Below, piece after piece: positions 1,881-61,269 of a stretch of DNA of 64,000 bases. The translations under genes and the position numbers were made by a program. Location of the stretch: contig CAVSGB010000262.1 of the NCBI GenBank assembly GCA_963726845.1, positions 6,696 through 70,695 of the forward strand, written 5' to 3'. Source of the stretch: an uncultured Bacteroidota bacterium (lineage in GTDB: Bacteria > Bacteroidota > Bacteroidia > Bacteroidales > DTGW01). The notes beneath the pieces are model-generated. The model had not been told where the DNA came from. It was given only the letters and a program-made list of their open reading frames with translations, and searched no databases. Within the stretch, counting starts at the first letter, position 1. The number at the start of each line of letters is the position of its first letter.

Positions 1881-1890
1881 AAATTAATTT

Positions 1891-1930
1891 GCTGATGTGC
1901 TAATGTGCTAATTTGCTGATGTGCTAATTT
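1891..1930. repeat. tandem octamer array GCTGATGT/GCTAATGT/GCTAATTT (5 units), same family as 57332..57559
   Basis: Five in-phase 8-mers start 10 nt after the response-regulator stop codon. The spurious ORF 1856..2077 reads through them (AHQQISTLAHQQI). Confidence 0.85.
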
Positions 1931-6017: not shown

Positions 6018-9000
6018 TTAAAATTTAATACTTAAAGTGGCATACATTGATTTTGGGTTCGGCACCGAGCCACGATCAATGGCATTATCAGAAAAATTAT
6101 TATCGGTAAAAGTGGTGGCTTCCGGGTCGTACCCTTTATATTTAGTGAATGTAAATATGTTTTCGAAACTTAATGATAATCTAAATTTCATGTGATTAAA
6201 AAGTTCTTTTGTTGGTACGTAACTAAGGGTAATGGTTTTTAATCGTATAAAACTTGCATCGTCAATAAATACAGACGACTGATAAAAAACTGAAGTGGTC
6301 ATAGCATTTAAACTGTCGCGAAAGTAATTGTTTACTTCCCGGTTAGTACCCGTCATAAAAGTTGCTGCCCGTGTGGCGTTGTATTTTTTAACACCCTGCA
6401 CAGCATACCAAAGAATAATTAAACTGAAATTTTTATATTGAAAAGTATTGGAAAAATCCCAGGTATATTTTGGGATTGAATTCCCAATAACTACCATATC
6501 GTTTGTGGTAAGGCTTTTATTGGTTGTGTCGGCATTCAAATATTTCATTCCACCTGATCGGACATAATGAATATCTTTTGCACGGGTATCGGAAGCAGTC
6601 CATTTGCCCAGGTTCTTATAGCCATAAATATCACCAATCGGCTGTCCTTCTTTGATAATAAACTCAGGCATCAATACGTCCGATGTACTTGCAAAAACCA
6701 TTGGCTGGTCATTCAGTACTTTCTTTACAATTTGGTGCGAAATAGAGATGTTAAATTTAGTATTCCAGGAATAAGTGCCAGTTTTCACGGGGTTTGCTTC
6801 AAGACATAATTCTGAACCATTTACGGCTATTGTACCGACATTGAGGTATTGCATCCCGCCACCATAATAATAGGGTATCTGACGTTGAATAATCAGGTTG
6901 CTTATGCTCTTAACATAATTGGTAGCAGTAATTGAAACCTTCCTATCGAAGAACATACTTTTAATTCCATAATCAAATTCATCTGTTTTTTCATGTTTCA
7001 GGTTATGGTTGGCTAATTGTAAAACGGCAGGGTAGGTTCCGGTTATGCTACCAAGCGTATATTGGACATTTTGGTATAAATCATTGGCCAGGCCATTAAG
7101 CGGAAAGTTCCCACTTTCACCCCAGTTGGCATATAGGTTTAAATTATTTAACCAGATAATTTGTTTGAAAGGCCATTCCCGTGCAATATCCCAATTTACT
7201 GCCAAAGAAGGGAATAAAGCATAATAATTTGTGTACAGCCCTTCCTTGATATGACTTAAATTTGTCACAGCCGATATAAAGTAAGTTTCATTATAATTAT
7301 GACCTGCATTGGCCACATAAGAACCAATGGAACGTAGCACTGAACCATTTGGCCCATAAGCCGCCATAGAATTGCGCAGGTACGAGTAGCTATTCAACTC
7401 ACCCTGCATCGGTATCAACTTTCCACCAAAGGTTATCTTCATAAAACCTATAAGCTGCAACCAGATCTATTTTGTGTTTACCAAATGTATTGAAATAGGA
7501 AACATTATACTGATGGTTGTATAAAAAAACATCTTCATTACTTTTTATCGTGTTCATTACACTTCCAAGACTATTGAAAGATTGATCGGAACTGTAATTA
7601 TAAACGGAATATCTCAGCATTAACGATTCCATGGCATTCAGGCTTAGGTGATCGGTAAGTTGCAGCCTTGCCGAACCGCTAATTATATGCGAATTGATGT
7701 TTAAGCTATTAGTATTATTAGCGATTATCTGTTGTACCGGCTCTTTTTGGTTTAAGGAAGTATAATTATAATATATTCTTTTATAGTAGTTATTATATTG
7801 ATCGTGATAAAGTGAATCAGGGGTTGATTTGATACAGGGCGATTTGGTTATTCCTACAAAAAGAAGCGGGTTGCCCATGTAAATATCCTGATTGTCATTA
7901 TTGTCCTGTGAACTTCCACGGTAACCAATATCTATGGCTAATTTTTTCCAAAATATCCGGCTAAGCCTTGTTGAAAGGGTATATCTCCTATAGCTTGCAT
8001 TTGGCAAAATACCTTGTTGGTTGGTATAATTACCCGATAAATAATATTTTATAGTTTTAACTGTGCCCGATGCCGACAATTGATATTCCTGGGAAGAGCC
8101 ATTACGGAATATTTCTTTTTGCCAGTTGTCATTACTAGGATTGTTAGTAATTTTCGGATAATAGTTGTATAAATATGACTGGATATTATTTTTTGCTAAT
8201 TGAAGCGAAGAAAGAAAATCCTGTGTGTTCATCAGGTCATAAAAATTATTGAACCATTGAATACCTCCTTTAGTGGAGAAGCGAATCTCGTTTTCACCAC
8301 CTTTTTTGGTATCAATCAAAACTACCCCATTTCCACCCTGGAAACCATATAACGCTGTTGATGAGGCATCTTTAAGCACGGTAACATTTTCAATATCGTG
8401 GATATTAAGGTCGGCAATGCCCAAACTGGACATATTTACAATAGGCACTGGCACCCCATCAACCACGTATAAAGGTTCGGCTGATGAAAAGAATGAATTT
8501 TGACCCCGAATCCTTATTTTTTCATGATCACCCGGAAGGCCCGATGTACTTGTTGCCCATACGCCTGTGATACTGGAATGTAAAATATCAGAAGCATTGT
8601 TTACGTTTTGCAGTTCAATGGTTTTGGCATTAATAGTTGGTATGTCCCTGCCATATTCCATACTGCCAAAGAACTTACGCTGACTTGAAACCTTTACTTC
8701 CTGTATTTGGCTGGTATAGGGTCTAAAAATAACATCTATCGACGTATCGCCAACCACATTTATTTTTCTTTCATAATCCTTATAACCAATAAACCTATAC
8801 ACTATTGTATATTCACCTGGCAAAAGGCTTATGGAATAAGTGCCATCAGAATTGCTTACAGTACCTGAAGTTTCTCCTTTAATATAAATGCTTGTGCCTG
8901 CCATGGTTTCATGTGTTGCGGAATCAACTACAATCCCGGTAATTTTGAATTTTGTGGTTGATTTTTTCTTTTTCAGGATTATGTAATCATCTTTTAATTC

Positions 9001-12721: not shown

Positions 12722-12807
12722 TACCCGGGGCGGGAATCGAACCCGCACGAACATTGCTGCTCACAGGATTTTAAGTCCTGCGTGTCTACCTATTCCACCA
12801 CCTGGGC
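12722..12807 (-). tRNA. tRNA-Leu (anticodon UAA), type II with long variable arm
   Basis: The reverse complement reads GCCCAGGTGGTGGAATAGGTAGACACGCAGGACTTAAAATCCTGTGAGCAGCAATGTTCGTGCGGGTTCGATTCCCGCCCCGGGTA. The anticodon loop is CTTAAAA and the T-arm is GCGGG-TTCGATT-CCCGC. The acceptor stem has one A:C mismatch and a G:U pair. Confidence 0.85.
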
Positions 12808-12880: not shown

Positions 12881-12953
<73 letters not shown>

Positions 12954-20187: not shown

Positions 20188-20860
20188 TTACCAGTTCACT
20201 TTTTTTGTCCCCGATTTGATAGTTGTTTCAATAAAACCCAATAGTTCATCCTTCCCTTTTTTTTCAATTGTTGATGTGAAAAAAACACCTGGCATTTCTT
20301 CCCAGTCATCAAGCATGGCTTTTTTAAAATTACTAAAATTGCTTTCCAATTTATTAGATGAAATCTTATCGGTTTTAGTGAAAATCAAAACAAATGGTAC
20401 CCGGAATTGTCCCAGGAAAGTTAAAAATTCTATATCTAATTTTTGTGGCCCAAGCCTTGAATCAATAAGCACAAAAAGACAAAGCAAATTTGAACGCTTC
20501 GTTATGTATCCTTTTATCAATTCGCTAAAATGCTCTTTGTCAGATTTTGATGCGCGGGCATAACCGTAACCTGGCAAATCGACCAGATACCAGCTATTTG
20601 CATCGGTCACAACCGGTTTTATGTCCTTTTTATGTAACTTTATTTTATCAGACTGGCTCAACGGTAAAACAATAAAATGATTGATAAGCTTTGTTTTTCC
20701 TGGTTTTGATGAAACCTTTGCTAAGTTTTTAACTCCCGTTATCATATTGATGAGAGAAGATTTGCCAACGTTCGGACCGGCCAATAAAAGCAAATTCGGG
20801 AATGTCACCTTTTGGGCATAATTTATAATCGTTGCTACTTTTAATAAACCGGACTTCCAT
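20188..20860 (-). CDS. engB: ribosome-biogenesis GTPase YihA/EngB, frame broken once near 20774
   Basis: ORF 20188..20808 has G1 NVGKSSLIN and G3 DLPGYGYA. The N-terminus MEVRFIKSSNDYKLCPKGDIPEFAFIGRS lies in another frame from the ATG at 20860. Confidence 0.85.
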
Positions 20861-20902: not shown

Positions 20903-21000
20903 CTCCTGTCTCCTGATTCCTGTCTCCTGTCTCCCGTCTCCTGCCTCCTGACTCCCGTCTCCGGATTCCTGCCTCCTGCCTCCGGTCTCCGGTCTCCTGT
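20903..21000. repeat. tandem heptamer array CTCCTGT-type, 14 in-phase units
   Basis: CTCCTGT CTCCTGA TTCCTGT CTCCTGT CTCCCGT CTCCTGC CTCCTGA CTCCCGT CTCCGGA TTCCTGC CTCCTGC CTCCGGT CTCCGGT CTCCTGT. The array ends 3 nt from the manA stop codon (21004). Confidence 0.95.
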
Positions 21001-21003
21001 TCC

Positions 21004-21984
21004 TTATTTAATATAGACCTCTAAAATTTGTGCTAACCCTTTGGGTTCCAGAATAAGATTTTTTATCGCGGCCGGAATTAATACACATTCACCCTTATCG
21101 ACCTCTACATTTTCAATCCCTTCAGTTTTTATAATGAAATTGCCATCAACAGCAATATAAATTACAAATGAATCAATAAGGATATAATCTTTTTCGACAG
21201 GTTTATCGAAATACAAAACATTGGTAAAAAAGTACGGGCAATCTACCATATTCGAAGTATGGTTTAGCCTGGTTTCATATTTTGATTTATAACACGGATA
21301 ATAATTAAAATCAATTGCTTTCAAGGCCAAGTCGGTATGAAGTTCACGTGGATTGCCTTTATCATCCTTTCGGTTCCAGTCGAAAATGCGATATGTGATA
21401 TCTGAAGATTGCTGAATTTCGGCAAGTAGGATCCCAGCACCAATTGCATGGATACGACCGGGCGGAAGGTAAAAAACGTCTCCCTTTTTTACCTTTTCGA
21501 AATTTAGGATTTCAGGAAGTGTATTGTTATTGAGATGATCAAGGTAAATTTTATCATCGACTTTTTGATTGAAACCAACTATCAATTCTGCTCCCGGCTC
21601 ATGGTCGACAATGTACCACATTTCAGCTTTCCCCGGACAATTGTGATATTCCCGGGCCATTGTATCATCGGGATGCACCTGGATTGAAAGTTTGTCGTTT
21701 GCATCGATGAACTTAATAAGCAAAGGGAATTTTTCGCCAAAAACCTCATAAACACTATCGCCTACCAAATCGCCCAGGTATATTTCAATAAGCTCATTCA
21801 AATTATTCCCGGCTAAGAAACCATTGCTGATCATTGAAACATCATCATTAACATCGGCTATATCCCAACTTTCACCGCAAACTATGGAAGCTCCTGTTTT
21901 GTGAAGTATATTTCTCAACCTGCTGCCGCCCCAAATTTTATCTTTTAAAATAGGATAGAACTTTAAAGGGTAAAGTTGGTTCAT
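21004..21984 (-). CDS. manA: class I mannose-6-phosphate isomerase
   Basis: 326 aa: MNQLYPLKFYPILKDKIWGG.., ..LSIQVHPDD.., ..GRIHAIGAG... Confidence 0.85.
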   Translation of the reverse strand: MNQLYPLKFYPILKDKIWGGSRLRNILHKTGASIVCGESWDIADVNDDVSMISNGFLAGNNLNELIEIYLGDLVGDSVYEVFGEKFPLLIKFIDANDKLSIQVHPDDTMAREYHNCPGKAEMWYIVDHEPGAELIVGFNQKVDDKIYLDHLNNNTLPEILNFEKVKKGDVFYLPPGRIHAIGAGILLAEIQQSSDITYRIFDWNRKDDKGNPRELHTDLALKAIDFNYYPCYKSKYETRLNHTSNMVDCPYFFTNVLYFDKPVEKDYILIDSFVIYIAVDGNFIIKTEGIENVEVDKGECVLIPAAIKNLILEPKGLAQILEVYIK

Positions 21985-46232: not shown

Positions 46233-46330
46233 TCCGGTCTCTGGTCTCTTGTTTCCGGTTTCCTGACTCCTGTCTCCAGTTTCCTGACTTCTGACTCCAG
46301 TTTCCAGTTTCCAGTTTCCGGTCTCCGTTT
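46233..46330. repeat. tandem heptamer array TCCNGNY-type, 14 in-phase units
   Basis: TCCGGTC TCTGGTC TCTTGTT TCCGGTT TCCTGAC TCCTGTC TCCAGTT TCCTGAC TTCTGAC TCCAGTT x3 TCCGGTC TCCGTTT. It fills the convergent era/ftsZ gap and ends at the base before the ftsZ stop codon. Confidence 0.95.
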
Positions 46331-47785
46331 TTAATCTACATTATTATTGAGATATGGATTTTCAGGCCTTAACAATATTTTTCTTTCATCATCATCAATT
46401 AGCGTGAATTTTGAAATATCTGAATTGGCAGGGGTTTTCAAGTCATCAAAATTAACTTTCTTCCTTACATAAGCTGGTTGGTTTTCCATATCATCAATAA
46501 AATTTGTATCTCCCAAACCGGTTGTTAAATCTTTCTGGCGCGATTGATTTTTCTTCAATTCGTTCAACCTTTCATTTGATTTCGTTTTATTGATTTTAAC
46601 ATCGATATTATCGGGGCTGAAATTTTCTTCGGAATATGATGCGTTTGAAGACGATACAAAATCTAATTCAAGTTTCCGTTGGCGGGACTGTTCGGAATTT
46701 TCTTTCGTTTTAACTTCAAACATGCTGCTTGCATTAACCGTTTTGTGAGGCCTGTCTTCTGCAAGAGGAACATTAACAATCTGACGCTTACGATTATATA
46801 ATTCCGGAATTGAATTGGACTCAAACCCTGTGGCAATAATAGTTACACTAATCTTCCCACCTAAAGAAGGTTCATTTCCTGTTCCCCAAATCATAAGCGA
46901 ATCTTTGGCCACAGCACTTGTAACGAAATCAGTAATTATTCCAACTTCATCCATCGATACTTCTTCATCGCCTGATGTTATATTGAGCAAAATATTTTTT
47001 GCGCCGCGAATGTCGTTGTTATTTAAAAGTGGTGAATTTAATGCTTGTTGAATGGCATCGTGGGCACGGTTTTCACCTTCAGCAACTGCCGATCCCATAA
47101 TTGCCACTCCGCTATTGCTCATAACTGTTTGCACATCGGCAAAGTCAACATTGATATAGCCATGAACGGTTATAATTTCTGCAATTCCCTTTGCCGCTGT
47201 AGTTAGCACGTTGTCTGCACGTTTAAAGGCTTCTGAAAGTTTTTGGTCACCATACATTTCGCGTAGTTTCTCATTATGGATGACAAGCAGGGAATCGACA
47301 TAATTGCGTATTTCATTTATCCCTTCTATTGCCTGGTTAATACGCTGATGTCCTTCGAAACGGAATGGTACAGTAACAATAGCAACTGTAAGAATGCCCA
47401 TTTCTTTTGCAGTTTTAGCAATAACCGGCGCAGCGCCAGTTCCTGTACCACCTCCCATTCCAGCAGTTATAAAAACCATCTTGGTATTTGACGACAACAA
47501 ATCAATTACATCCTGTAAGTTTTCAATTGCCGATTGTCTGCCAATATCTGGTTTATTGCCAGCTCCCCGGCCTTCGGTGAGAGAGTTGCCAAGCTGAATT
47601 TTAACTGGTACCGGACTGTTTGCCAATGCCTGGGCATCGGTATTACAAACTACAAAATCGACATCTTTTATGCCCGACCGGTACATGTGGTTTACCGCGT
47701 TGCTTCCACCGCCTCCTACACCAATAACTTTAATTATGGAGGATTTGTGTTTTTGCAAATCAAAAGGAATTAAATCGTCTATCAT
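46331..47785 (-). CDS. ftsZ: cell division protein FtsZ
   Basis: Signature motifs are IKVIGVGGGGSNAVNHM and GMGGGTGTGAAPVIA. The listed ORF is open to 48010, but the canonical N-terminus MIDDLIPFDLQKHKSSIIKVIG starts at the ATG at 47785. Confidence 0.93.
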   Translation of the reverse strand: MIDDLIPFDLQKHKSSIIKVIGVGGGGSNAVNHMYRSGIKDVDFVVCNTDAQALANSPVPVKIQLGNSLTEGRGAGNKPDIGRQSAIENLQDVIDLLSSNTKMVFITAGMGGGTGTGAAPVIAKTAKEMGILTVAIVTVPFRFEGHQRINQAIEGINEIRNYVDSLLVIHNEKLREMYGDQKLSEAFKRADNVLTTAAKGIAEIITVHGYINVDFADVQTVMSNSGVAIMGSAVAEGENRAHDAIQQALNSPLLNNNDIRGAKNILLNITSGDEEVSMDEVGIITDFVTSAVAKDSLMIWGTGNEPSLGGKISVTIIATGFESNSIPELYNRKRQIVNVPLAEDRPHKTVNASSMFEVKTKENSEQSRQRKLELDFVSSSNASYSEENFSPDNIDVKINKTKSNERLNELKKNQSRQKDLTTGLGDTNFIDDMENQPAYVRKKVNFDDLKTPANSDISKFTLIDDDERKILLRPENPYLNNNVD

Positions 47786-48032
47786 GGTTATAAATTTTTG
47801 ATATAATTTTGAATTCTTGGTTGGATAAAAATCTATTTTTAACCTTCGTTCCTTTTTGGCGTTCCAACGGGAACCAAAAAGAACCTGGCTGAAAAAACTC
47901 GCTCCATCTCGTACCTCGACTTCGCTCAAACAGTTTTCAGCCGAAAAGGAATTGATATTTGACGCTTCGCAGTTTCTTAATAAGTTTAAATTAGATTTTT
48001 GAATTTTCATCTCTTATAATAAATAGCCGTTT

Positions 48033-50233: not shown

Positions 50234-50261
50234 ATAATTCATAATTCATAATTCATAATTT
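50234..50261. repeat. tandem heptamer array ATAATTC x3 + ATAATTT (same unit as 59015..59147)
   Basis: It overlaps the last codons and stop codon of murC (..KQNYEL*) and fills the murC/ftsQ spacer. Confidence 0.9.
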
Positions 50262-51622
50262 TGCTTTATCTTTTCAGCAAACCCATCTATATCGCCGGCT
50301 CCCATCGTTATAATCAATTCTGGCTTACGTGTTTTTAGTAATTCTAATAAATTTTCTTTTTTGCAAATTGTTTTATTCCGGATTGTCACTTTATTAAAAA
50401 TCAATTCTGAGCTTACACCTTCGATCGGTTCTTCACGTGCCGGATATATATCGAGCAAAACAAGTTCGTCGAGAAGGCTTAGGTTTTCGGCAAAACCATC
50501 AGCAAAATCTCGTGTACGTGTGTACAAGTGCGGTTGAAATATCCCCATAATTTTCTTTTCCGGGAACAATTCCCTGGCTGAGGTTATGCAGGCTTTTATT
50601 TCTTCGGGATGATGTGCATAATCGTCAATATAAATCAAATCTTTATTATTAATTTGAATTTCGAACCTGCGCTTCACCCCTTTATATGAAGCCAGTGCAC
50701 TTATCATTTCTTCTGGTGTAACTTGCAGGATAATGGCCGCAGAAATAGCTGCAATTGCATTTTCAAGGTTCATTTTGCCTGGTATTCCCAATTTAATGTC
50801 CCTGACAATTCCCATCGGGGTTTGTAGATCGAAGTTGTAAAGCCCATCAACAACCCGGACATTTTCAGGATAGAAATTTGCCTTTTCGGTCAATGAGTAT
50901 GTGAAATCGTTTACATCGTTGAGGCTGCCAACATCAATCGGAAGGCCTTTTTTGTAAACCAAAACCCCATTTTCAGTTATTTGTTGCGCGAACTGGTTAA
51001 ACGATTTTATTACTTCTTCGTGTGTCCCATAAATATCCAGGTGGTCGGCATCAACAGAAGTAATTACCGCAAGATATGGAAAAAGGTGGAGGAACGAACG
51101 GTCATATTCATCTGCTTCAGCTATTACAACTTCACTTGTATTAGAGATCAATAAATTTGAATTGAAATTTTTTGATATTCCGCCAAGAAATGCTGAACAT
51201 CCAACTGATGAGCTTGTAAGTATATGGGCAAGTATTGTTGATGTCGTGGTTTTGCCATGTGTACCTGCGACTGCAATACCTGTGTGGTTCGAAAAAATCA
51301 TTCCCAGTACTTCAGCGCGTTTCAAAACTGTGTATTCACGTTCTTTAAAATAATTGAATTCGTAATGATAATTTGGCACAGCCGGTGTATATATCACGAG
51401 TGTATTTTCCTTATGAGAAATTATTGGATCTGGCACCAATTCAAGTTTGTCTTCGAAATGTACATCAATACCCTCTTTTTTGAGTTCATCGGTAAGTGGG
51501 GTTGAAGTTTTATCATAACCGGCGACAAATTTGCCCTGCGACTTGAAATACCTTGCCAGTGCGCTCATTCCGATACCGCCAATTCCAACCAGGTACACAT
51601 TGTTGATTTTTTCGAATTCCAT
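50246..51622 (-). CDS. murC: UDP-N-acetylmuramate--L-alanine ligase
   Basis: 458 aa: VYLVGIGGIGMSALA, AVAGTHGKTTT. Confidence 0.95.
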   Translation of the reverse strand: MEFEKINNVYLVGIGGIGMSALARYFKSQGKFVAGYDKTSTPLTDELKKEGIDVHFEDKLELVPDPIISHKENTLVIYTPAVPNYHYEFNYFKEREYTVLKRAEVLGMIFSNHTGIAVAGTHGKTTTSTILAHILTSSSVGCSAFLGGISKNFNSNLLISNTSEVVIAEADEYDRSFLHLFPYLAVITSVDADHLDIYGTHEEVIKSFNQFAQQITENGVLVYKKGLPIDVGSLNDVNDFTYSLTEKANFYPENVRVVDGLYNFDLQTPMGIVRDIKLGIPGKMNLENAIAAISAAIILQVTPEEMISALASYKGVKRRFEIQINNKDLIYIDDYAHHPEEIKACITSARELFPEKKIMGIFQPHLYTRTRDFADGFAENLSLLDELVLLDIYPAREEPIEGVSSELIFNKVTIRNKTICKKENLLELLKTRKPELIITMGAGDIDGFAEKIKQNYEL

Positions 51623-51690
51623 TTTTATAGGTCATTTAAGGTTGAAAACTTAAAGTATGTTTCTTAAAATAAATTCTATATTTTCTAAAA

Positions 51691-51765
51691 GCCTCATATC
51701 GACACCCTCCAATCGGAGAGGGAGTTTCCCATTCTCCTTTTGGAGAAGGGGCAGGGAGTGAGGCC
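51691..51765. repeat. GC-rich hairpin repeat element, copy B
   Basis: GCCTCA..CCCTCC-aatc-GGAGAGGG..TTCTCC-TTTT-GGAGAAGGGGCAGGGAGTGAGGC. It is related to 291..359, and its ends GCCTCA/TGAGGC pair. Located in the murG/murC spacer. Confidence 0.75.
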
Positions 51766-51792
51766 TTTGGTATATTTCGAAACGAATTCATT

Positions 51793-52917
51793 TTATCGTT
51801 TTTTATTTTCTGAAACAATTTCTAATATCTTCTTTGCAATTTTTTCAGATGAATTATGTAACGCCAATTTTGAAATATTATCGGCAAGTTCCTTTTGCCG
51901 TGTCCCATCTTTTGCAAGTTGAAGCGCTGTATCTATTAATTTGTCATTCGCTTCTGAATCGGCAACTAAAATGGCTGCATTTTTATCGACCAATGCCTGT
52001 ACATTTTTTGTTTGATGGTCTTCGGCTACATTAGGCGACGGTACGAGGATTGAAGGTTTTCCTGTAATACATAATTCTGAAATACTGCTTGCACCTGCCC
52101 TTGAAATAACTATGTCGGCCACGGCATAAGCCAAATCCATCCTTGAAATAAAATCATGAAGTTTGATGTTTTCAGCGTTTGCTGAATGTAATTGAATATT
52201 TGCCCGGGCCTTATACAAACTGCCGCTTTGCCAGATAAACTGTAAATTACTATTTTTTATCTTGTCTATCGATTTTGCAATACTTTGGTTTATCATGCGG
52301 GCTCCCAGGCTTCCACCAATGCTAAGGATTGTGTTTTTTTCAGGACTTAGGCCAAAGTATTTATATCCTTCATCCTTTAAGTTGCCTAAAGCTTCAAGTC
52401 CCTGCCGAATTGGATTTCCTGTAATTATTATTTTTTCTTTGGGAAAATATTTTTCCATCCCTTCATATGCAACAAAAATCAATTTTGCTTTTTTTGCCAA
52501 TAATTTATTGGTAATCCCTGCATAGGAATTTTGTTCCTGTATAACTGTCGGAATTCTTAAACGTGAAGCTGCCCAAAGCACTGGAGCACTTGCATAACCG
52601 CCTACCCCAACAACAATATCTGGATTGAATTCCTTTAAAACTTTTCGTGCTCTGATTAAACTTTTAATTAATTTTAATATAACAGTGAAATTTTTATAAA
52701 AAATCTTTCTTTGAAATCCTGCGACCGGTAATCCGATAATTTTGTAACCTGCTACTGGGACTTTCTCCATTTCCATTTTGTTTTCAGCGCCTACAAAAAG
52801 TATTTCGATTCCGGGATCAAGTTTTATTAATGCATTGGCAATTGATATGGCAGGGAATATATGGCCTCCGGTTCCGCCGCCACTTATGATTATTTTAATA
52901 TTTTGCTTTTCAACCAT
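51793..52917 (-). CDS. murG: undecaprenyldiphospho-muramoylpentapeptide beta-N-acetylglucosaminyltransferase
   Basis: 374 aa: IIISGGGTGGHIFPAISIA.., ..ISRAGASSISEL... Confidence 0.95.
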   Translation of the reverse strand: MVEKQNIKIIISGGGTGGHIFPAISIANALIKLDPGIEILFVGAENKMEMEKVPVAGYKIIGLPVAGFQRKIFYKNFTVILKLIKSLIRARKVLKEFNPDIVVGVGGYASAPVLWAASRLRIPTVIQEQNSYAGITNKLLAKKAKLIFVAYEGMEKYFPKEKIIITGNPIRQGLEALGNLKDEGYKYFGLSPEKNTILSIGGSLGARMINQSIAKSIDKIKNSNLQFIWQSGSLYKARANIQLHSANAENIKLHDFISRMDLAYAVADIVISRAGASSISELCITGKPSILVPSPNVAEDHQTKNVQALVDKNAAILVADSEANDKLIDTALQLAKDGTRQKELADNISKLALHNSSEKIAKKILEIVSENKKR

Positions 52918-52980
52918 TTTTAGGTATTAGCTTTTAGCTTTTAACTATTAGTTCATTATTTTTTGTTCTTTACTTTTAAC
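52918..52980. repeat. tandem heptamer array TTTTAGC-type, 9 in-phase units
   Basis: TTTTAGG TATTAGC TTTTAGC TTTTAAC TATTAGT TCATTAT TTTTTGT TCTTTAC TTTTAAC. It starts at the base next to the murG ATG and ends 4 nt from the ftsW stop. Confidence 0.85.
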
Positions 52981-52984
52981 TTAT

Positions 52985-54205
52985 TTAATCTGCCTTCTGT
53001 TCTTCTTTTGCTTCATCTTTTTCAGTTTCCTCTTCTTCTTTATTCTCAGAAATTTCTGTTTCTTCCTTATTTATACCCCTGCTTACACTCAGTATTATCC
53101 CCAAGGCAGAACTGGTAAATAAAATTGACGATCCGCCCATGCTCACTAATGGGAGTGTTTGTCCTGTTACCGGGAAAAGGTTTACAGCAACAGCCATATT
53201 TATCATTGCCTGAAACACTAAGCTCAGCGATAACCCGAATGTAAGGAATGCAGGAAATGTACGATCTGTTTTTCGCACGATAACACCTGCCCTGTATAGC
53301 AGGTATAAATAAAGAAACAAAACAAGAATGCCACCGATTAATCCATATTCTTCAACAATAATCGCATAAATAAAGTCAGAAAACGGGAATGGTAGAAAAT
53401 TTCGTTGTGTGCTGTTCCCAGGTCCTTTGCCAAGTATACCGCCGGTTGCAACAGCTATTTTTGCCTGCTCTGCCTGGAAATTATTGTCATCATCTTTTTC
53501 GGTATCCTTACCAATATAAGTTTCCACGCGGTGTTTCCATGTATCGACCCTATGGCCAAGCTTGGTTTTTGTCATTGGCGCTATCAGCACAAATAGTGAT
53601 AAGAAAATTATTCCTGCTAGTCCAAGCAATAAAAGATGTTTGATCGATATCCGCCCGACAAACATTAGAATTATACTCACTGCAAAAATCATGAGCGAGG
53701 TTGAAAGGTTTGAAGGTAATATCAGGATACAAACCAGGCCGACAGGGATTATTATTGGCAGAAATGCTTTCTTAAAATCTTTAATTTCTTCCTGCTTTAA
53801 TGACAGAACGCGGGCAATATACATTATCAGCGCTAATTTTGCAAAATCAGAAGTTTGTATTGTTATCCCGATTCCGGGTAATGTCAACCATCGCGAGGCT
53901 GAATTAATTGCAGTGCCCATCACCATTGTTAAACCAAGCAAGGGTATTGAAATAAACAGAAGCAATTGAGCAAGCCTTGAATAATATTTATAAGGGATAA
54001 GATGCGTTATATAAATTGCAACAAATCCTATCAACATGAACGATAAATGTTTCAGGATATAATAGGTTGTATTGCCGCCCTGGTATTTATAGGCCAGTGT
54101 GCCGGTTGAACTATATACGGCAAGTACTGAAATTAATGTAAGGCAAATTATTACTCCCCAGATTATCCCATCGCCTTTAAAATATTTTCTTAGTGTCTCA
54201 GCCAT
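52985..54205 (-). CDS. ftsW: FtsW/RodA/SpoVE-family peptidoglycan glycosyltransferase (cell division protein FtsW)
   Basis: 406 aa, polytopic, with ..SDFAKLALIMYIA.. and ..TGQTLPLVSMGGSS... Confidence 0.92.
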   Translation of the reverse strand: MAETLRKYFKGDGIIWGVIICLTLISVLAVYSSTGTLAYKYQGGNTTYYILKHLSFMLIGFVAIYITHLIPYKYYSRLAQLLLFISIPLLGLTMVMGTAINSASRWLTLPGIGITIQTSDFAKLALIMYIARVLSLKQEEIKDFKKAFLPIIIPVGLVCILILPSNLSTSLMIFAVSIILMFVGRISIKHLLLLGLAGIIFLSLFVLIAPMTKTKLGHRVDTWKHRVETYIGKDTEKDDDNNFQAEQAKIAVATGGILGKGPGNSTQRNFLPFPFSDFIYAIIVEEYGLIGGILVLFLYLYLLYRAGVIVRKTDRTFPAFLTFGLSLSLVFQAMINMAVAVNLFPVTGQTLPLVSMGGSSILFTSSALGIILSVSRGINKEETEISENKEEEETEKDEAKEEQKAD

Positions 54206-54422
54206 TGTTAGGTGTTAGGTATTTGCTATTAGGTTTTAGTTTTTTATTTATTTTAAATATTTGTCTTTTTTAATTTGTCATTTGTCATTTGTAATTTGTA
54301 ATTAGTCATTTGTAATTTGTCATTTGTAATTTGTAATTTGTAATTTGTAATTTGTAATTTGTAATTTGTAATTTGTAATTTGTAATTTGTAATTTGTAAT
54401 TTGTAATTTGTAATTTGTAATT
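54206..54422. repeat. tandem heptamer array, 31 units in a single phase (TGTTAGG-type grading into TGTCATT/TGTAATT; last 14 units are perfect TGTAATT)
   Basis: The phase was checked unit by unit from the base next to the ftsW ATG (54205) to 6 nt before the murD stop (54429). ORF 54320..54610 (ITNYKLQ repeats) is an artefact of this array. Confidence 0.95.
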
Positions 54423-54428
54423 CTCTTC

Positions 54429-55764
54429 TTAAAGTTCTTTAACAAATTTTTTAAACTGCCTACCCCTGTCCTCGTAATTATCGAATAAATCAAAACTCGC
54501 GCATGCAGGTGATAGCAGAACAGTTTCACCTCCTTTGGCCAAATGATAAGCAGCCTTGACGGCTTCCTGCATTGAACTTGCATCCACGATAGCATCGACC
54601 ATGCCATCAAAAGATTTATGCAATTTTGTATTGTCTTTGCCCAAACAAACCATTGCTTTTACTTTTTTCTGGACCAATTCATAAAGTTCTTTATAATTAT
54701 TTCCTTTATCGGTTCCCCCTGCTATCCAGATAACATTATTTGGGATACATTCTAATGCGTACCAAACTGAGTTGACATTTGTTGCTTTTGAATCGTTTAT
54801 GAATTCAATACCATTGACTTTTACAACATACTCCAACCGATGCTCAACTCCTTTAAAATCCATCAACGATTCACGGATTATTTCCTTTCGAATTTTTAAG
54901 GCGCTTCCTGTAATGCCTGCTGCCATTGAATTGTAGGCGTTATGCCTTCCTTTTAATGAAAGTTCATCTAAGGACATAGAGAAATCGATATTGTCAAATT
55001 CAATATTGATAAAATTGTTGCGGACATAGGCTCCTTTTAGTTGCTGGTTTTTAAGTGTCATTGGTAATTGTTTTGCCCTAGTTACGATCTTTTCCATTTC
55101 GCGAATGGTGAGGTCGTCATCAGAACAATAAATAAAGAAGTCTTCTTCGGTAAGGTTTTGTGTTATTCTGAATTTTGAGTCGATATATTTTTGCAAGTCG
55201 TAATCGTAGCGGTCAAGATGATCTGGGGTAATATTAAGTAAAATCGCGATGTCAGCCTTAAACTCATACATATCGTCCAATTGAAAATTACTGATTTCGA
55301 GGACGTAATAATCGAAATTCTCGGTCGCAACCTGCATAGCAAAGCTTCTTCCAATATTTCCGGCAAGACCGACATTCATACCTGCCTTCTTCATCATGTG
55401 ATATATTAGTGATGAAGTAGTTGTTTTACCATTGCTTCCTGTAATACAAATTTTATAAGCTGATGTGTACCTTCCTGCAAATTCAATTTCTGAAATTATT
55501 GAAATACCAGCTTCACGAATCTTTAAAACAATCTCGGCTTTGTCTGGAATGCCTGGGCTTTTTATAATTTCATGGGCATCTAAGATTAATTCTTTCGTAT
55601 GCTGGCCTTCTTCAAAAGCTATATTATAGTTGTTCAGGATTTCTTTATAATAGTCTTTTATTTTTCCGGAATCGGAAACGAAAATTTCGAAACCTTTTAA
55701 ATGTGCAAGAACAGGCTGCACCTACACCGCTTTCACCGGAACCTAAAATTACTATTCGTTGCAT
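54429..55764 (-). CDS. murD: UDP-N-acetylmuramoylalanine--D-glutamate ligase, frame broken once near 55714
   Basis: ORF 54429..55721 has ..ICITGSNGKTTT... The N-terminus MQRIVILGSGESGVGAA is in another frame from the ATG at 55764. Removing one base from GCAGCCTGTT gives GVGAAVLAHLKGFEIFVSD. Confidence 0.93.
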
Positions 55765-55780
55765 AGTTAAACCTCCAGGA

Positions 55781-56073
55781 GCCTACCAAACCAAGCCTCA
55801 CCCCCAACCCCTCTCCAAAAAGAGAGGGGCGAAAGAAAAGGAGTGGCTTAGGTAAGCAATATTTTAATTTTTACGTTTCATATCAAATTTAATTTTAACT
55901 CTGCCTTTCTTTCTTCTTCTTCCCTTAATGGAGGCCTGGTTAGGCTTAGGCCTCCCAAACACTCCAAAGGAGAGGCTTAGATTAGCAATATTTTAATTTT
56001 TACGTTTCGTATCAATTTTATTTTAACTCTGCCTTTCTTTCTCCTCCCCTTCGGGGAGGTTGGGTGGGGCTTC
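55781..56073. repeat. composite repeat region: GC-hairpin element copy C (55781..55850, inverted relative to copy A), a 129-nt-period direct duplication (55845..55924 / 55974..56049), and two GC hairpins (55930..55955, 56043..56059)
   Basis: The reverse complement of 55781..55850 aligns almost base for base with 291..359. The two AT-rich copies read GGCTTAG.TAGCAATATTTTAATTTTTACGTTTC.TATCAA.TTT.ATTTTAACTCTGCCTTTCTTTC. The hairpins are GGAGGCC..GGCCTCC and CCTCCCC-ttc-GGGGAGG. Confidence 0.85.
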
Positions 56074-57326
56074 TTATCTTATCTTTAATGTAACTATTGT
56101 TATAATTGCCAAAATAATCCCGACAATCCAGAAACGTGTTACTATCTTGGCTTCCGGATATCCCTTCATTTGGTAATGATGGTGCAATGGCGCCATTTTA
56201 AAAATCCGCCGTCCTTCACCGAACTTTTTCCTGGTGTATTTGAAATAACTTACCTGCATCATTACCGAAAGGTTTTCAACAAGAAAGATTCCACAAAGAA
56301 TCGGGATTAGAAGTTCTTTACGGATAATAATTGAAAAAACTGCAATTATTCCACCTAAGGCCAGGCTTCCTGTATCGCCCATGAATACCTGGGCAGGATA
56401 AGAATTGTACCATAGAAAACCAACTGTTGCACCAATGAAAGCGCTTGCGAAAATTACCAGTTCGCCAATATGTGGGATGTACATTATATTAAGATAATCT
56501 GCATAAATCATGTTTCCTGACAAATAAGCCAAAATGCCGAGTGTTGTGCCTATTATTGCAGAAGTGCCGGTTGCAAGGCCATCGAGTCCATCGGTGATAT
56601 TTGCACCATTCGATACAGCAGTGATAATAATGATTATGGCTATTATAAAAATCAACCATTTCCATTTTGCAGCTGATCCGCCCAGAAACCACACCAATTT
56701 ACCGTAATTAAATTCATGGTTTTTTAAAAATGGTATAGTTGTTTTGGTTGATTTTACATCGCGATATTCAACGAATTTAGCATGTGAAATATTTAGCTCA
56801 TCGCTACCAACTGTATTTTCTGAAACAGGTAAAGTTTTAGTTATCTTTTGCCTGACAACAACATCGCTGCTAAGCCATAATGTTAGCCCTACAATTATTC
56901 CAAGTCCAACCTGTCCTACAATTTTAAATTTTCCTTCTAACCCTTTTTTATCTTTTTTATATACTTTTATATAATCGTCCATTCCTCCAATAAAAGCAAG
57001 CCACAATGTAGTTACCAACATAAGTATTACATAAACATTTAGAATATCAGCAAATAACAATGTTGGTATAACAATACCTGCAATAATAATTATTCCTCCC
57101 ATTGTAGGGGTCCCTTTCTTTTGCATTTGTCCTTCAAGGCCAAGGTCGCGAACTATTTCTCCAATTTGTTTCCTTTGAAGGAATAGGATTATTCTTTTGC
57201 CAAAAAGAAGTGCAATAGCCAGTGATGTAATTGCAGCCATGGATGCCCTGAAAGAAATATAATGGAACATCCCGGCCCTGGAAGGTCTATCGATTCGTGA
57301 AGGTATTTGAACAGGTAGTATAACAT
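56074..57326 (-). CDS. mraY: phospho-N-acetylmuramoyl-pentapeptide transferase, frame broken once near 57272
   Basis: ORF 56074..57270 has ..KKGTPTMGG.., ..[13 protein letters not shown].., ..[12 protein letters not shown]... The N-terminus [19 protein letters not shown] is in another frame from the ATG at 57326. CCGGGATG looks like CCGGGGATG minus one G. Confidence 0.93.
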
Positions 57327-57331
57327 AATTT

Positions 57332-57559
57332 ATTAATGTGCTTATTAATTGATATGCTAATGTGCTAATTGTTTATAATCAAAATTTAAAATGATTTTTC
57401 ATACTTTAATTTTTGTTTTTGAATTCAAAATTTTATTGTTTCAGTTTTATATTTGTTGTTTTTTCATTTTCACATCGACAAATCAGCACATCAGCACATC
57501 GGCACATCGGCACATCGGCACATCAGCAAATCAGCAAATTGTCGCATTAGCAAATTGTT
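57332..57559. repeat. two oppositely oriented octamer arrays (GCTAATGT-type 57332..57371; ACATCAGC-type, 11 in-phase units, 57472..57559) separated by about 100 nt
   Basis: The right arm reads ACATCGAC AAATCAGC ACATCAGC ACATCGGC x3 ACATCAGC AAATCAGC AAATTGTC GCATTAGC AAATTGTT. The left arm is its approximate reverse complement. The right arm supplies the last codons and stop of murE. Confidence 0.9.
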
Positions 57560-58999
57560 TAATAACTTCTTCTTTATCATCAAAATGGTACTTTACGCCT
57601 TTAATTTCCTGATAAGTTTCATGGCCTTTCCCGGCAACAAGAATAATATCGCCGGGTTTGGCAAACATTACAGCTGTTTTAATAGCTTCATGCCTGTCTG
57701 GAATTGTTAAGGTTTTTTTTGTGTATTGTGCATCAATACCAGTAACCATATCATTTATTATATCAGCAGGTTCTTCGAAACGAGGGTTGTCTGAAGTGAT
57801 GATTACTTTATCAGAATTCTCTGCACATACCCGGGCCATAATCGGGCGCTTTGTCTTATCGCGGTTTCCGCCTGCGCCGACAACAGTAATTAGTTGTTCA
57901 CCACCTTTTCGTATTTGATGGATTGTTTTCAGAACATTTACCAAAGCGTCGGGAGTGTGGGCATAATCAATTATTGCATTGATACCGTTCTTAGAACCTT
58001 ACAGTTTCGAATCGCCCGCTTACTTCGCGCAATGAACTTAGGATACGAAGAATTTCTTCTTTATTTTGTCCAAGCATTATTGCAGCAGAATAAATAGCGA
58101 GCAGGTTACTTGCATTGAATTCACCAATGAGTGGTGTCCAAAAATCTTCACCGTCTAATATCAATTGCATTCCATCGAAATGACTTTCAATTACCTTCGC
58201 TTTAAAATCGGCCATGTAACGCATTGCAAAAGTTTTAATAACCGCTTTGGTATTCTGGACCATTACCTGTCCATTTCTATCATCGATGTTTATTACTGCA
58301 AAAGCTTCTTTGCCCAAACTATCAAAAAATGATTTTTTTGCTTTGAGATAATTGTCAAAAGTCAAATGATAATCTAAATGGTCGTGGGTAATATTCGTGA
58401 AAATACCGCCTGCAAAGCGCAAACCTGCAGTACGTTTTTGCGCCTGTGCGTGCGAGCTGACTTCCATAAAGCAATATTCACATCCAACATCCACCATTTC
58501 AGCCATTAGTTTATTTAAAATTATCTGATCAGGAGTTGTATGTGTCGATTCGAAAGTTTTATCGTCCACACAATAAACTACCAGTTGAAATTAATCCTGA
58601 TTTATGCCCCAATGCTTTAAATAGCCGAAATAGAAGAGTAGCGATTGTTGTCTTACCATTTGTTCCGGTAACACCAACTAATATTAATTTATTTGATGGA
58701 TTGTTGTAAAAGTTTGAAGCAATGATACCCATTGCTTCTGCTGAATCAGGAACAACAATCCATGTAATATTTGCAGCCCAGTCTTTTGGCAACTTTTCAC
58801 ATACAATTGCTCTTGCCCCTGATTCTAAAGCTTTTTGAATAAAAGAATGTCCATCGGTTTGTGTGCCTGAAATTGCAATGAATACAGAGCCTGGTTTTAC
58901 TTTTCTTGAATCGGATTGAATATCTAAAATCTCGATATTTAATTCGCCAAAAACTTTAACAGGCTGTATATTTTTTAATATGTCGTTTAAAGTTTTCAA
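57531..58999 (-). CDS. murE: UDP-N-acetylmuramoyl-L-alanyl-D-glutamate--2,6-diaminopimelate ligase, frame broken twice (near 58581 and 57995)
   Basis: The three ORFs (58559..58999, 57991..58569, 57531..57944) join as ..[69 protein letters not shown]... The junction peptides were read in the shifted frames. Confidence 0.93.
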
Positions 59000-59014
59000 T
59001 ATTTTATTCTAATA

Positions 59015-59147
59015 ATAATTCATAATTCATAATTCATAATTCATAATTCATAATTCATAATTCATAATTCATAATTCATAATTCATAATTCATAATTCAT
59101 AATTCATAATTCATAATTCATAATTCATAATTCATAATTCATAATTT
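59015..59147. repeat. tandem heptamer array ATAATTC x18 + ATAATTT
   Basis: Perfect periodicity from 59015. The array ends at the base before the ftsI stop codon (59148) and fills the ftsI/murE spacer. Confidence 0.95.
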
Positions 59148-61269
59148 TCATCCTAAACTAATAACTACAGTACTTCCTTTTTCAGCCCGTTCTCCTGGCG
59201 ATATGGACTGTTTCAAAACTTTTCCATAGCCTTTTATTACTACACGTAATCCTGCATTTTCTAAAAGGAAAAGTGCATCTTTTGCACCCAGGCCGGTTAC
59301 ATCAGGCACTAAATTTTTAATAATCTTTTTATTATAAACAGCAATCTCATTTTCACTTTTTGAAGCCGTAACCCAGTTACCCGTTTTATCAGATTTTTCT
59401 TCAGAAGGAATCCCCAGATCGTCAAGTGATTCTTCAAGCTCGTTCCATGAACCTGCTTTAACTGAGGGTGATTCAACCTTCAGATGACTTTTACCGGCTA
59501 TCATTTCATTATGCAGTTCAAAACTTGTAGCATTAACTTTTTGCGCAATTTCTTTGAAAACCGGACCGGCCACTAAATTTCCATAATACACATCTTTCGA
59601 TGGGGCATTTACTACCACGATACAAGAGTATTTTGGGTCTTCTGCAGGAAAATACCCGGCAAACGAGGCCTGATAGCTTATTTTAGCATCCTGACGGTAC
59701 CCTTTATTTTTCTTTGCTATTTGTGCAGTACCTGTCTTTCCGGCTATTTTCAGGCTCGAATCACGCAGGTTCATTGCAGTTCCCCGCAGCACGACTCCTT
59801 CTAACATTTTTCTTGCTTTGCGGATAGTTGACATCGAACAAATATTGGGAATCATTACTTCAGGTTCAAATATTTTTATTGTTTGGCCATGGTTGCGCAA
59901 CTCTTTTACAAATCGTGGTTTGATAAGCTTGCCATTATTTGCAACTGCATTATAAAATGAAAGGATTTGAAGAGGAGTCAGCCTAACCTCATAACCGTGT
60001 GCGATCATCGGCAGCGAAATACCTGACCAGAGCTTGTCCCCCGGATATTTTATTTCCGGAAAACCTTCGCCTTTTATATCGAGGGTCCTGTTTTCTATTC
60101 AACCCGAAACTATATATTCGTTTAATAAATTGTTCTTCCCGGCCCTTATAGTAATGCGTTATAATTTTAGCAACACCCACATTAGACGACAATTCAAAAA
60201 CTTTCTGAATACTTATTTTGCCAAAGCCTTTTTCATGGCTGTCGCTAATTACCTTGTCATAATATTTGACGGTTCCATTGCCTGTATCAATAGTATCTTC
60301 AAGACTTATATATCCATCCTCCAACGCAGCCATCAACGATACCAATTTAAATGTAGAGCCCGGCTCAGTGCTTTCGGCAATCCCATAATTGTACAATTCC
60401 CGGTAATTGCCATCTTTATCACGCTCCAGGTTTGCAATGGCCTTAACTTCACCTGTTTTAACCTCCATAAGTATTGCTGTACCGTGATGTGCCTCATGTT
60501 TCTCAAGTTGTTTTCGCAAAGCCTCTTCAGCCACATCCTGAATGTTGAGATCGATAGTTGTTACTACATCGCAACCTTCTTTTGGTTCTACCTCGTTTTC
60601 ATCGTTTATTGGCATCCAAACATTACCGGTAATTCGCTGCATTAGTTTTACACCTTTTACACCACTTAAATCAATGTCAAACGAACCTTCGATCCCGACC
60701 ATGTTACCATCTTCACTTTTTGTCAAATACCCTATTGTTCGGGCAGCCAAATCGCCATGAGGCAGAAACCGCACATTGTTTTGGACTACTATAAGGCCGC
60801 CTTTATTTTTTCCTAACCTGAAAAGCGGGAAAGTCCTCAACTTTTTTAGTTGTTGAAAATCTATTTTTCTTTTTAGAAGGTAATATCTGTTTTCAGTGGA
60901 GCGTGCTTCGGCAAGTTCGTGCCGGTATGCACTTTTGGGTTTGTCTTGAAAAAGCCTCGAAAGACAAAATGCCAAAGAATCGATATTTTCTAAAAATGTT
61001 TCCCGTGAGATAGTATTTTTACTTAAATCGATCCTGATTTCATAGAAAGGAACGGCAGTCGCAAGCAACCTGCCATCGCAAGCCAGGATATCGCCACGGT
61101 TTGGTTCTATTTCAATATCCTTTACCGAAAGTTGTACTGCCTTTTTTGTAAGTTCAGCGACTTCAACAAATTGCAGGTAAACTATCCTGGCTATAATGCA
61201 CAAACCAAAAAGTACTATGATTATATAAACCATTGCGACACGCCATAATATGTCCTTTTTAATAGTCAT
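59148..61269 (-). CDS. ftsI: penicillin-binding protein 3 / FtsI transpeptidase, frame broken once near 60091..60094
   Basis: The N-terminal ORF has a TM anchor, a dimerisation domain and the SxxK motif (EPGSTFKLV). The C-terminal ORF has KTG (IAGKTGTAQ) and a PASTA-like tail. The junction ..FGLNR/..RTLDIKGEGFPEIKYPGDKLWSGISLPMIAHGYEV was read in the shifted frame at an A-run. Confidence 0.93.

Follow-up and report, generated by a model that had tools for sequence, protein, structure and literature searches.

The 64,000-nucleotide window analysed here (positions 6,696 to 70,695 of contig CAVSGB010000262.1, assembly GCA_963726845.1) comes from an uncultured Bacteroidales bacterium and carries a division and cell wall (dcw) gene cluster in which many of the intergenic spacers are made of tandem arrays of 7- or 8-nucleotide (nt) units that run up against the flanking stop and start codons. 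These arrays belong to a known, poorly understood class of bacterial repeats; it is the lineage and the operon that are newly described, rather than a new system. We consider it rather probable that they are simple-sequence repeats of the known heptamer class which were generated by slippage, have been filtered by selection and serve no function specific to the dcw genes.

The arrays were mapped using Tandem Repeats Finder (TRF) together with direct reading of the sequence (Table 1). An earlier, sequence-only reading of the window had listed five arrays within the dcw cluster and three outside it, and all of these were found in place. The ten arrays of the table all lie in spacers and overlap at most the last one to five codons of murC, murE and ftsI. 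The stop codons of these three genes fall inside an array or at its edge, the ATGs of ftsW and murG lie 0-2 nt from an array, and the three arrays outside the dcw cluster each begin 0-4 nt from a stop codon. Viewed along the transcript, every array in the window starts somewhere between an overlap with the upstream stop and 7 nt after it, and this stop-side placement holds even where 33-190 nt of spacer are left on the other side. When compared with uniform placement within each present-day spacer the anchoring is significant (Fisher-combined p=7e-5) and agrees with the pooled data described below, as the sequence-only reading had proposed.

Table 1. Heptamer and octamer arrays of the window, with the evidence for each and its position relative to neighbouring genes.
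Positions	Strand	Unit and copy number	Evidence	Setting
59015-59146	-	(GAATTAT)x18.9 on mRNA strand (+ strand ATAATTC)	TRF, 100% matches	Fills ftsI/murE spacer (59000-59147); begins at ftsI stop (TGA 59148-59150), ends 15 nt before murE TTG
57471-57536	-	Octamer, CTGATGTG/CCGATGTG type, x8.2	TRF	Overlaps murE stop (57531-57533)
57333-57372 (approx.)	-	Degenerate inverted octamer partner, + strand reading CTAATGTG, ~5 in-phase units	Sequence reading; below TRF threshold	60 nt upstream of mraY ATG
54259-54422	-	(TACAAAT)x23.4 on mRNA strand	TRF, 91% matches	Starts 6 nt past murD stop
54206-54258	-	Degenerate heptamers, CCTAACA-type on mRNA strand	Phase table; TRF rows 54208-54244	Same phase as TACAAAT array; end adjoins ftsW ATG (54203-54205)
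52918-52980	-	GCTAAAA-type heptamers (+ strand TTTTAGC-type), 5 clear and 4 degenerate in-phase units	TRF for 52918-52951, x4.9, 77% matches	Fills ftsW/murG spacer; adjoins murG ATG (52915-52917)
50234-50260	-	(GAATTAT)x3.9 (+ strand ATAATTC)	TRF, 100% matches	murC stop (50246-50248) inside array
46233-46330	-	GGAAACT/GGAGACN-type heptamers on mRNA strand, x13.6	TRF	Starts at base after ftsZ stop (46331-46333); 16 nt from convergent era stop
20903-21004	-	(ACAGGAG)-type heptamers on mRNA strand, x14.7	TRF	Starts at stop of 326-aa gene 21004-21984; ends ~42 nt upstream of probable engB ATG
1885-1928	+	Octamer, CTGATGTG/CTAATGTG family, x5.5	TRF	4 nt past stop (1878-1880) of + strand gene

A phase parse of the murD/ftsW spacer recovered the 31 heptamers that had been read there: positions 54206-54422 follow one phase throughout (TGTTAGG...TGTAATT), from the ftsW ATG to 6 nt from the murD stop, so that this spacer is the array. 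The nine heptamers read in the ftsW/murG spacer are likewise in phase and adjoin the murG ATG, but four of them are degenerate. Both octamer arrays claimed for the murE/mraY spacer were seen; one of the two is, however, degenerate and inverted, an orientation that had been missed. Unit families recur within the window: GAATTAT and YTCCNGT are each present at two sites and the CTGATGTG family at three. Both GAATTAT junctions of the dcw cluster have a common flank, AAAATTATGAATTATGA, and the array at 1885-1928 and that of murE belong to one unit family and agree in sense orientation, with CTGATGTG on the mRNA strand in both.

Periods of 7 and 8 nt are clearly over-represented. A sliding self-similarity spectrum of the window gave 496 nt at period 7 and 122 nt at period 8, compared with 0-25 nt at every remaining period between 4 and 12. 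A count of perfect tracts no shorter than two units plus 3 nt gave ten at period 7, two at period 8 and 0-5 at other periods. Every perfect period-7 and period-8 tract falls within a catalogued array, and this count of perfect tracts found no extra short heptamer seeds elsewhere in the window. The sequence-only reading had placed arrays in almost every dcw spacer; many do carry one, but the statement was too strong, the fraction being six of the ten spacers of at least 20 nt when the ftsZ 3' flank is counted. Those without an array are mraY/murD (~310-352 nt), murG/murC (170 nt), ftsA/ftsZ (~247 nt) and rsmH/ftsL (20 nt).

Exact-protein look-ups with FtsW and MurC led to contigs L032-L036, which stem from three other public samples (JGI 3300014839, ENA ERZ27248448 and Logan ERR11523660), all of them short-read assemblies. 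These contigs are 99.3-100% identical to the window, and its arrays recur in them at identical sites. The sequence-only reading had allowed for an assembly artefact, and several frameshifts in essential genes (ftsI, murE twice and engB) do hint at uncorrected indel errors in the window. However, because three independent assemblies carry the arrays, and similar arrays are present in isolate genomes, we reject an origin as artefacts of assembly or of long-read sequencing, the chance of which we regard as negligible.

The assemblies differ from one another at the arrays by 7 or 28 nt, and these changes leave every open reading frame (ORF) intact. The murD/ftsW spacer is 223 nt long in the window but 216 and 195 nt in L033 and L032, respectively, with a different order of internal variant units, and the murC/ftsQ array has four units in the window and L036, eight in L035 and at least eight in L032. 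The ftsW/murG spacer is 67 nt long in all four assemblies and the ftsZ array is identical in L035. Metagenome scans gave no copy-number variants of the ftsI/murE, ftsZ, mraY and PMI arrays, for which the protein look-ups returned short contigs only. The length variability suspected from the sequence was thus observed at murD/ftsW and murC/ftsQ, and a variation by whole units among near-identical strains is the signature of slippage or unequal exchange. Contigs L032 (which ends at window position 50234) and L034 (which starts at ~54351) stop inside the GAATTAT and TACAAAT arrays, respectively. Arrays of this kind break up operons in assemblies of short metagenomic reads.

The closest genomes in a species-representative collection are metagenome-assembled genomes (MAGs) of uncultured Bacteroidales with FtsW identities of at most 76%, hence the assignment to Bacteroidota made from the sequence was right. 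The nearest relatives (L001 and L003-L008, FtsW 55-76% identical) show no period-7/8 arrays in the 21 kb around dcw. Their orthologous spacers are short, 11-70 nt for ftsI/murE and 40-71 nt for murD/ftsW, which implies that the arrays of the window are recent inflations and not conserved elements. Three distant Prevotella MAGs (L016, L023 and L031, FtsW ~38% identical) have heptamer arrays of their own, of the GAGTTAG family, at rsmH/ftsL, ftsI/murE, mraY/murD, murD/ftsW, murG/murC and ftsA/ftsZ, and many of these have their start at -7 to +8 nt relative to the upstream stop. The architecture of the dcw arrays recurs independently, built from unrelated units.

Exact pattern scans, with each species represented by one genome, covered (GAGTTAG)x4, (GAATTAT)x4 and, as a control, (GATATTA)x4, an arbitrary permutation with unchanged composition. 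Each pattern was found at at least 120 loci in many phyla. Among the matches listed, those for GAGTTAG were mostly from heterocystous cyanobacteria, with others from Bacteroidota and further phyla, while many of those listed for GAATTAT and GATATTA were from Bacteroidota, including the isolate genera Hymenobacter, Soonwooa, Chryseobacterium, Flavobacterium, Parabacteroides, Taibaiella and Psychroflexus. The latter two units also form arrays in Cyanobacteria, Lentisphaeria, Anaerolineae, Gammaproteobacteria and others. That the arbitrary control heptamer is, by these minimum counts, equally widespread argues against a sequence-specific factor, and it leaves unsupported the idea that GAATTAT is a special, transferred unit. 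Furthermore, the array-seeded loci, which lie in arbitrary gene contexts, hold, besides the seed, ~2.3 period-7/8 arrays per 10 kb, and period 7 outnumbers all other periods. Heptamer arrays are therefore a genome-wide trait of array-rich genomes in several phyla and not a dcw device. A specificity for dcw is unsupported given this background density in other genomes, despite the local enrichment in the window. A very long example was noted in a Chitinophagales MAG (L113, JBBRUR010000092.1), where a composite heptamer tract at ~1889-2580 spans ~690 nt and ~99 units and was matched by both the GAGTTAG and the GAATTAT scans.

Position and strand were analysed in a pool of 561 arrays with two flanking ORFs from all loci. 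Array ends facing a stop codon were within 8 nt of it or overlapped it in 35% of cases compared with 12% expected from uniform placement, and ends facing a start codon in 14% compared with 10%. A very clear dependence on the strand was seen. Where an array has its G-rich strand in the sense of the upstream gene, it begins no more than 8 nt from the stop of that gene in 57% of cases (median 5 nt), whereas in the opposite orientation it does so in 11%. Stop-abutting arrays with more G than C on the sense strand number 226 and those with more C than G number 40 (p=1e-32); with the three seeded units set aside, 101 and 15 remain. Nine of the ten window arrays obey this rule. Stop capture, in which stop trinucleotides within the units end incoming ORFs, was rejected as the main cause, as units without stop trinucleotides still abut the stop in 44% of cases when G exceeds C and in 5% when C exceeds G.

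The homogeneity of units along the pooled arrays shows no polarity and so gives no sign of directional growth. The middle of the arrays is cleanest, as expected for slippage, and both ends are equally degenerate, which leaves polar growth with a decaying tail, hinted at by the murD/ftsW spacer, unsupported. Neighbouring arrays of one spacer in the pooled loci are reverse complements of each other in 45 of 199 pairs, many of them with units specific to the pair. Examples are found in L225 (1547-1635, 3282-3384 and 4958-5054) and L193 (3122-3321 and 6242-6338), and the pair-specific units CAATTGA/ATTGTCA and AGTAGTT/ACTACTA occur in an isolate Parabacteroides. Inverted heptamer pairs of this kind would form long hairpins.

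Several described repeat classes resemble the window arrays. Among long simple sequence repeats (LSSRs) with 5-11-nt units in prokaryotes, heptanucleotides form the most abundant class (Mrazek, Guo and Shah 2007, as cited in PMC4679880 and PMC4692102), and contact with the polymerase has been proposed to explain the preference for 7 nt (Mrazek et al. 2007, as cited in PMC4679880). As that survey is summarised in the later papers, its repeats share with ours short head-to-tail units, a dominant period of 7, a mostly non-coding location, a sporadic distribution across lineages and an origin ascribed to slippage. In the window, likewise, head-to-tail units of no more than 11 nt exceed chance, units whose length is not a multiple of three are kept to non-coding DNA, and copy number changes by whole units between close relatives. 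Unlike the window arrays, the repeats of the survey are not, in those summaries, described as operon-internal and codon-abutting; the survey predates most Bacteroidota genomes.

The closest likenesses are with two more recent studies. Rehm et al. 2015 (PMC4692102) described the heptamers GGGAATC in Xanthomonas and GGGGA(T/C)T in Nostoc PCC 7120, which are strongly biased to lie within 0-50 nt of a stop codon or to overlap it, with the G-rich strand being the coding strand, and which lie on the non-coding strand when upstream of start codons. Their repeats are part of transcripts and include operon-internal examples (pecE/pecF) and tandemly inverted repeats. The window arrays share the heptamer unit, the proximity to stops with a G-rich coding strand, the operon-internal location and the inverted pairs. 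The units of Rehm et al. have GGG runs, are capable of forming G-quadruplexes and usually number four (PMC4692102); the window units, in contrast, are A/T-rich or have isolated G, reach 23 copies and belong to another phylum. None of them (GAATTAT, TACAAAT, GCTAAAA, CCTAACA, CTGATGTG, ACAGGAG and GGAAACT) contains GGG, and they cannot form G-quadruplexes. The intergenic TAACTGA repeats of MacGregor 2015 (PMC4679880) abut start codons or extend over the stop upstream, and strains differ in them by 7-nt indels; they were reported in Beggiatoaceae, Cyanobacteria and five Bacteroidetes (Flexibacter litoralis, Paludibacter propionicigenes, Gramella forsetii, Aequorivita sublithincola and Elizabethkingia anophelis). 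Other heptamer repeats occur in the same spacers, and close relatives have shorter, repeat-free spacers (PMC4679880). The window arrays, too, lie near starts or overlap upstream stops, beside essential genes, with 7-nt strain indels and with array-free shorter spacers in relatives. The Beggiatoaceae sets have mostly 2-6 copies and are proximal to start codons (PMC4679880), whereas the window arrays are longer, are built from several different units and are mainly anchored at stops. A search of the window for two TAACTGA copies with up to two mismatches gave no matches.

Heterocystous cyanobacteria are the established hosts to which the sequence-only reading had compared these arrays. The canonical cyanobacterial units of the short tandemly repeated repetitive (STRR) type are CCCCAGT, TTGGTCA and CAACAGT. 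None of these forms an array in the window by TRF, and CCCCAGT x2 gave one match, at chance level. As cited in PMC4692102 (its ref. 39), the STRRs of Calothrix and Anabaena are intergenic tandem heptanucleotides that also occur within operons and are abundant genome-wide. Intergenic tandem heptanucleotide arrays are what the window contains as well, but in a Bacteroidales host. Simple sequence repeats (SSRs) at contingency loci of Haemophilus, Neisseria and Moraxella show a comparable slippage-driven polymorphism of unit number between close strains (PMC12721329, PMC2651432); they are located inside ORFs or in promoter spacers, where they turn surface or antigen genes on and off. In the window, by contrast, the unit changes observed shift no reading frame, and the neighbouring genes (murC, ftsQ, murD and ftsW) are essential housekeeping genes.

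STRR-like heptamer and octamer arrays are indeed present in a Bacteroidota genome, as the sequence-only reading had claimed. Its statement that such arrays had not been described in Bacteroidota is incorrect, because intergenic heptamers have been reported in five Bacteroidetes (PMC4679880), and the claim of novelty is largely refuted by the condition that this reading had itself set, the arrays being of a repeat class already known (PMC4679880, PMC4692102). A full-text literature search found no further paper on heptamer repeats in Bacteroidota, where the literature is thin.

The explanation we favour has three parts that we infer from these observations: slippage as the generator, selection behind the bias in position and strand, and the lack of a dedicated function. 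Replication slippage or unequal exchange would create and resize the arrays, which would be retained only where a unit length indivisible by three is harmless. In a compact operon this harmless zone would reach from the last few codons of one gene to the initiation region of the next. An array seeded in an original spacer of 10-70 nt would expand it, with the result that the spacer becomes mostly array and the array ends lie against the flanking codons. By an estimate, which is not a fitted model, ~60% of arrays within 8 nt of a stop would be roughly expected if an overlap of ~20 nt with the C-terminus is tolerated and the downstream regulatory region is spared. A second filter would act on the transcribed strand, such that directly after a stop arrays that are G-rich and C-poor on the mRNA become the common ones; it might reflect avoidance of Rho loading or of other harm from C-rich untranslated RNA. 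A mutational alternative for the strand rule would be that G-rich non-template DNA is prone to R-loops where ribosomes leave the transcript. The length polymorphism of the arrays is probably neutral or at most weakly modulatory.

A number of observations weigh against this explanation. The strand rule is very strong and is not predicted by a purely neutral process at the DNA level, and the selective filter that we favour for it is a proposal. The rule also has an exception in the window itself, the TACAAAT array, which has more C than G on the sense strand and yet begins 6 nt past the murD stop. Nor would independent random seeding lead one to expect the same unit families at separate sites. 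Arrays cluster locally, in 6 of 11 dcw spacers compared with ~2 of 33 elsewhere in the window (p=0.0014), or ~4.7 arrays per 10 kb in the dcw cluster and ~1.6 in the whole window, a clustering for which the explanation does not account. Finally, for the preference for 7 nt, the polymerase-contact idea of Mrazek et al. 2007 is, as cited in PMC4679880, the only proposal.

Alternatively, the arrays might be cis-acting mRNA elements whose unit number tunes the expression of the next gene, with G-rich, C-poor RNA blocking Rho loading, holding post-termination ribosomes or S1 for re-initiation, or serving as a platform for RNA-binding proteins. We regard this reading, all its variants taken together, as unlikely, though well short of negligible. 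It would account for a strand-polar rule that is tied to the sense strand and the stop and that nearly all of the window arrays fit, and two arrays do adjoin start codons. Arrays are common in Bacteroidota and Cyanobacteria, and Cyanobacteria make little use of Shine-Dalgarno (SD) pairing. The same is true of Bacteroidetes (PMC7797042), and MacGregor 2015 suggested translational regulation for TAACTGA (PMC4679880). Almost no structure is predicted for the murD/ftsW spacer RNA, which has a minimum free energy of -1 kcal/mol over 245 nt (z +2.6, every shuffle folding better). For the (GAAUUAU)18 spacer RNA, however, the prediction is a long imperfect hairpin (-31.4 kcal/mol, z -4.5), and the murE/mraY octamer array at 57471-57536 pairs with its inverted copy at 57333-57372 in a predicted fold of -56.1 kcal/mol (z -2.1). 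An unstructured spacer, which the sequence-only reading had offered as one possible role, is thus rejected as a general feature by the predicted folds, and with structures so heterogeneous no single RNA-level property is common to the arrays. Further points against cis-acting elements are that arbitrary units behave alike, that strains which are almost identical differ twofold in copy number at a junction of essential genes (murC/ftsQ), and that the same rule is seen in Xanthomonas, an SD user (PMC4692102). Moreover, there are no arrays at the orthologous junctions of the relatives, so that the conservation expected of a required element is missing.

The same predicted hairpins could instead suggest that the arrays are structural elements that act after genes as terminators, attenuators, RNase processing sites or mRNA stabilisers, and the reverse-complementary neighbours of the pool, such as those in L225 and L193, together with the tandemly inverted repeats of Rehm et al. 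2015 (PMC4692102), point in this direction. Most window arrays, however, are single and not self-complementary, the TACAAAT array is maximally unstructured, and inverted pairs are found whether the context is co-directional, convergent or divergent. T-run features of terminators were neither seen nor tested for. We therefore view a general role as hairpins as quite improbable. A dedicated copying or mobility mechanism, or horizontal transfer, we judge to be improbable to a similar degree. It would fit the recurrence of GAATTAT at two dcw junctions with the common flank, of the octamer family and of YTCCNGT within the window, and of the same units across phyla, and MacGregor 2015 favours horizontal transfer of TAACTGA (PMC4679880). 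Against it, the control heptamer is just as widespread, which means that recurrence across phyla needs no transfer; reading of the dcw spacers found no transposase, terminal inverted repeats or target duplications flanking the arrays; and the arrays change in place by whole units.

A wider reading of the strand-polar rule is that it reflects one conserved process, coupled to translation termination and transcription, that operates across phyla on arbitrary units. We hold this to be a minority possibility. In a mutational form, repeats could expand where the ribosome leaves the transcript, for instance through R-loops on G-rich non-template DNA. In a functional form, the arrays could be an anti-Rho or re-initiation pad that permits long untranslated spacers in essential operons.

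The window has a G+C content of 35.8%, and its dcw cluster, on the minus strand, is complete (mraZ, rsmH, an ftsL-like ORF, ftsI, murE, mraY, murD, ftsW, murG, murC, ftsQ, ftsA and ftsZ), followed after ftsZ by a convergent era gene. The dcw gene names were checked with NCBIfam and confirmed. Frameshifts split ftsI into two ORFs (59989-60008), murE into three (58559-58569 and 57944-57991) and engB into two (~20780-20800), the last apparently through one extra G within the conserved FIGRSNVGKSS motif. The orthologues of these genes in L001, the closest relative, are intact and in a single frame. Rather than pseudogenes, these are most likely indel errors that went uncorrected in a long-read assembly, and they call for caution with single-base detail inside the arrays. 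The true start of the 559-aa ftsZ ORF is probably an internal ATG at 47785 (region 47786-48032), as the FtsZ family alignment begins at residue 86 and the gene call in L035 is 484 aa. With this start, the ftsA/ftsZ spacer is ~247 nt long and contains a stem-loop-like segment and no heptamer array.

The array-free spacers have features of their own. In place of heptamers, that between mraY and murD (55722-56073) contains G+C-rich hairpins together with a direct duplication of 78 nt (55837-55914 / 55966-56042, 92% identical). Its hairpin element at 55789-55843 has an inverted copy at 296-350 (91% identical), and the hairpin directly after the mraY stop (CCUCCCC-GAAG-GGGAGG) is found also in L001 at 8455-8508. 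This spacer may consist of a small dispersed element and a conserved stem-loop. The 170-nt murG/murC spacer (51623-51792) contains a G+C-rich stem-loop with a predicted energy of -42 kcal/mol and has no homologue among L001-L031; a 51-aa ORF without a Pfam match, called there in three other assemblies, is probably spurious. In L001 the murE/mraY spacer (6681-7254) is 575 nt long and seems to hold a small inserted ORF. Its translation (...SGASIGANIREAQ...) may resemble the four-helix-bundle '23S rRNA-intervening-sequence' proteins. Rfam at gathering thresholds gave, for the whole window, two tRNAs only (minus strand, 12722-12807 and 12881-12953) and no known RNA family for the arrays. The GC skew of the window tracks gene orientation only and is uninformative on the direction of replication.

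Collectively, an essential and tightly ordered operon here tolerates spacers of 45-260 nt that are made almost wholly of hyper-variable repeats. Bacteroidales and many other Bacteroidota, isolates included, join the heptamer-array-rich lineages, and the published rule that links stop codons to the coding strand now covers arbitrary units and not just two G-rich unit families. Should the arrays be neutral, which we think most likely, their value lies mainly in annotation, in strain typing as markers akin to variable number tandem repeats, and in assembly quality. If, on the other hand, the strand rule does reflect one conserved process, the stoichiometry of dcw expression in this organism would be tunable by unit number. 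Cultivable array-rich Bacteroidota (Parabacteroides sp. PF5-6, Hymenobacter actinosclerus DSM 15310, Soonwooa buanensis DSM 22323 and Chryseobacterium soldanellicola DSM 17072) could make the causes of the 7-nt preference and of the strand rule testable. The most promising part for experiment is the strand-polar anchoring of these arrays at stop codons across phyla.

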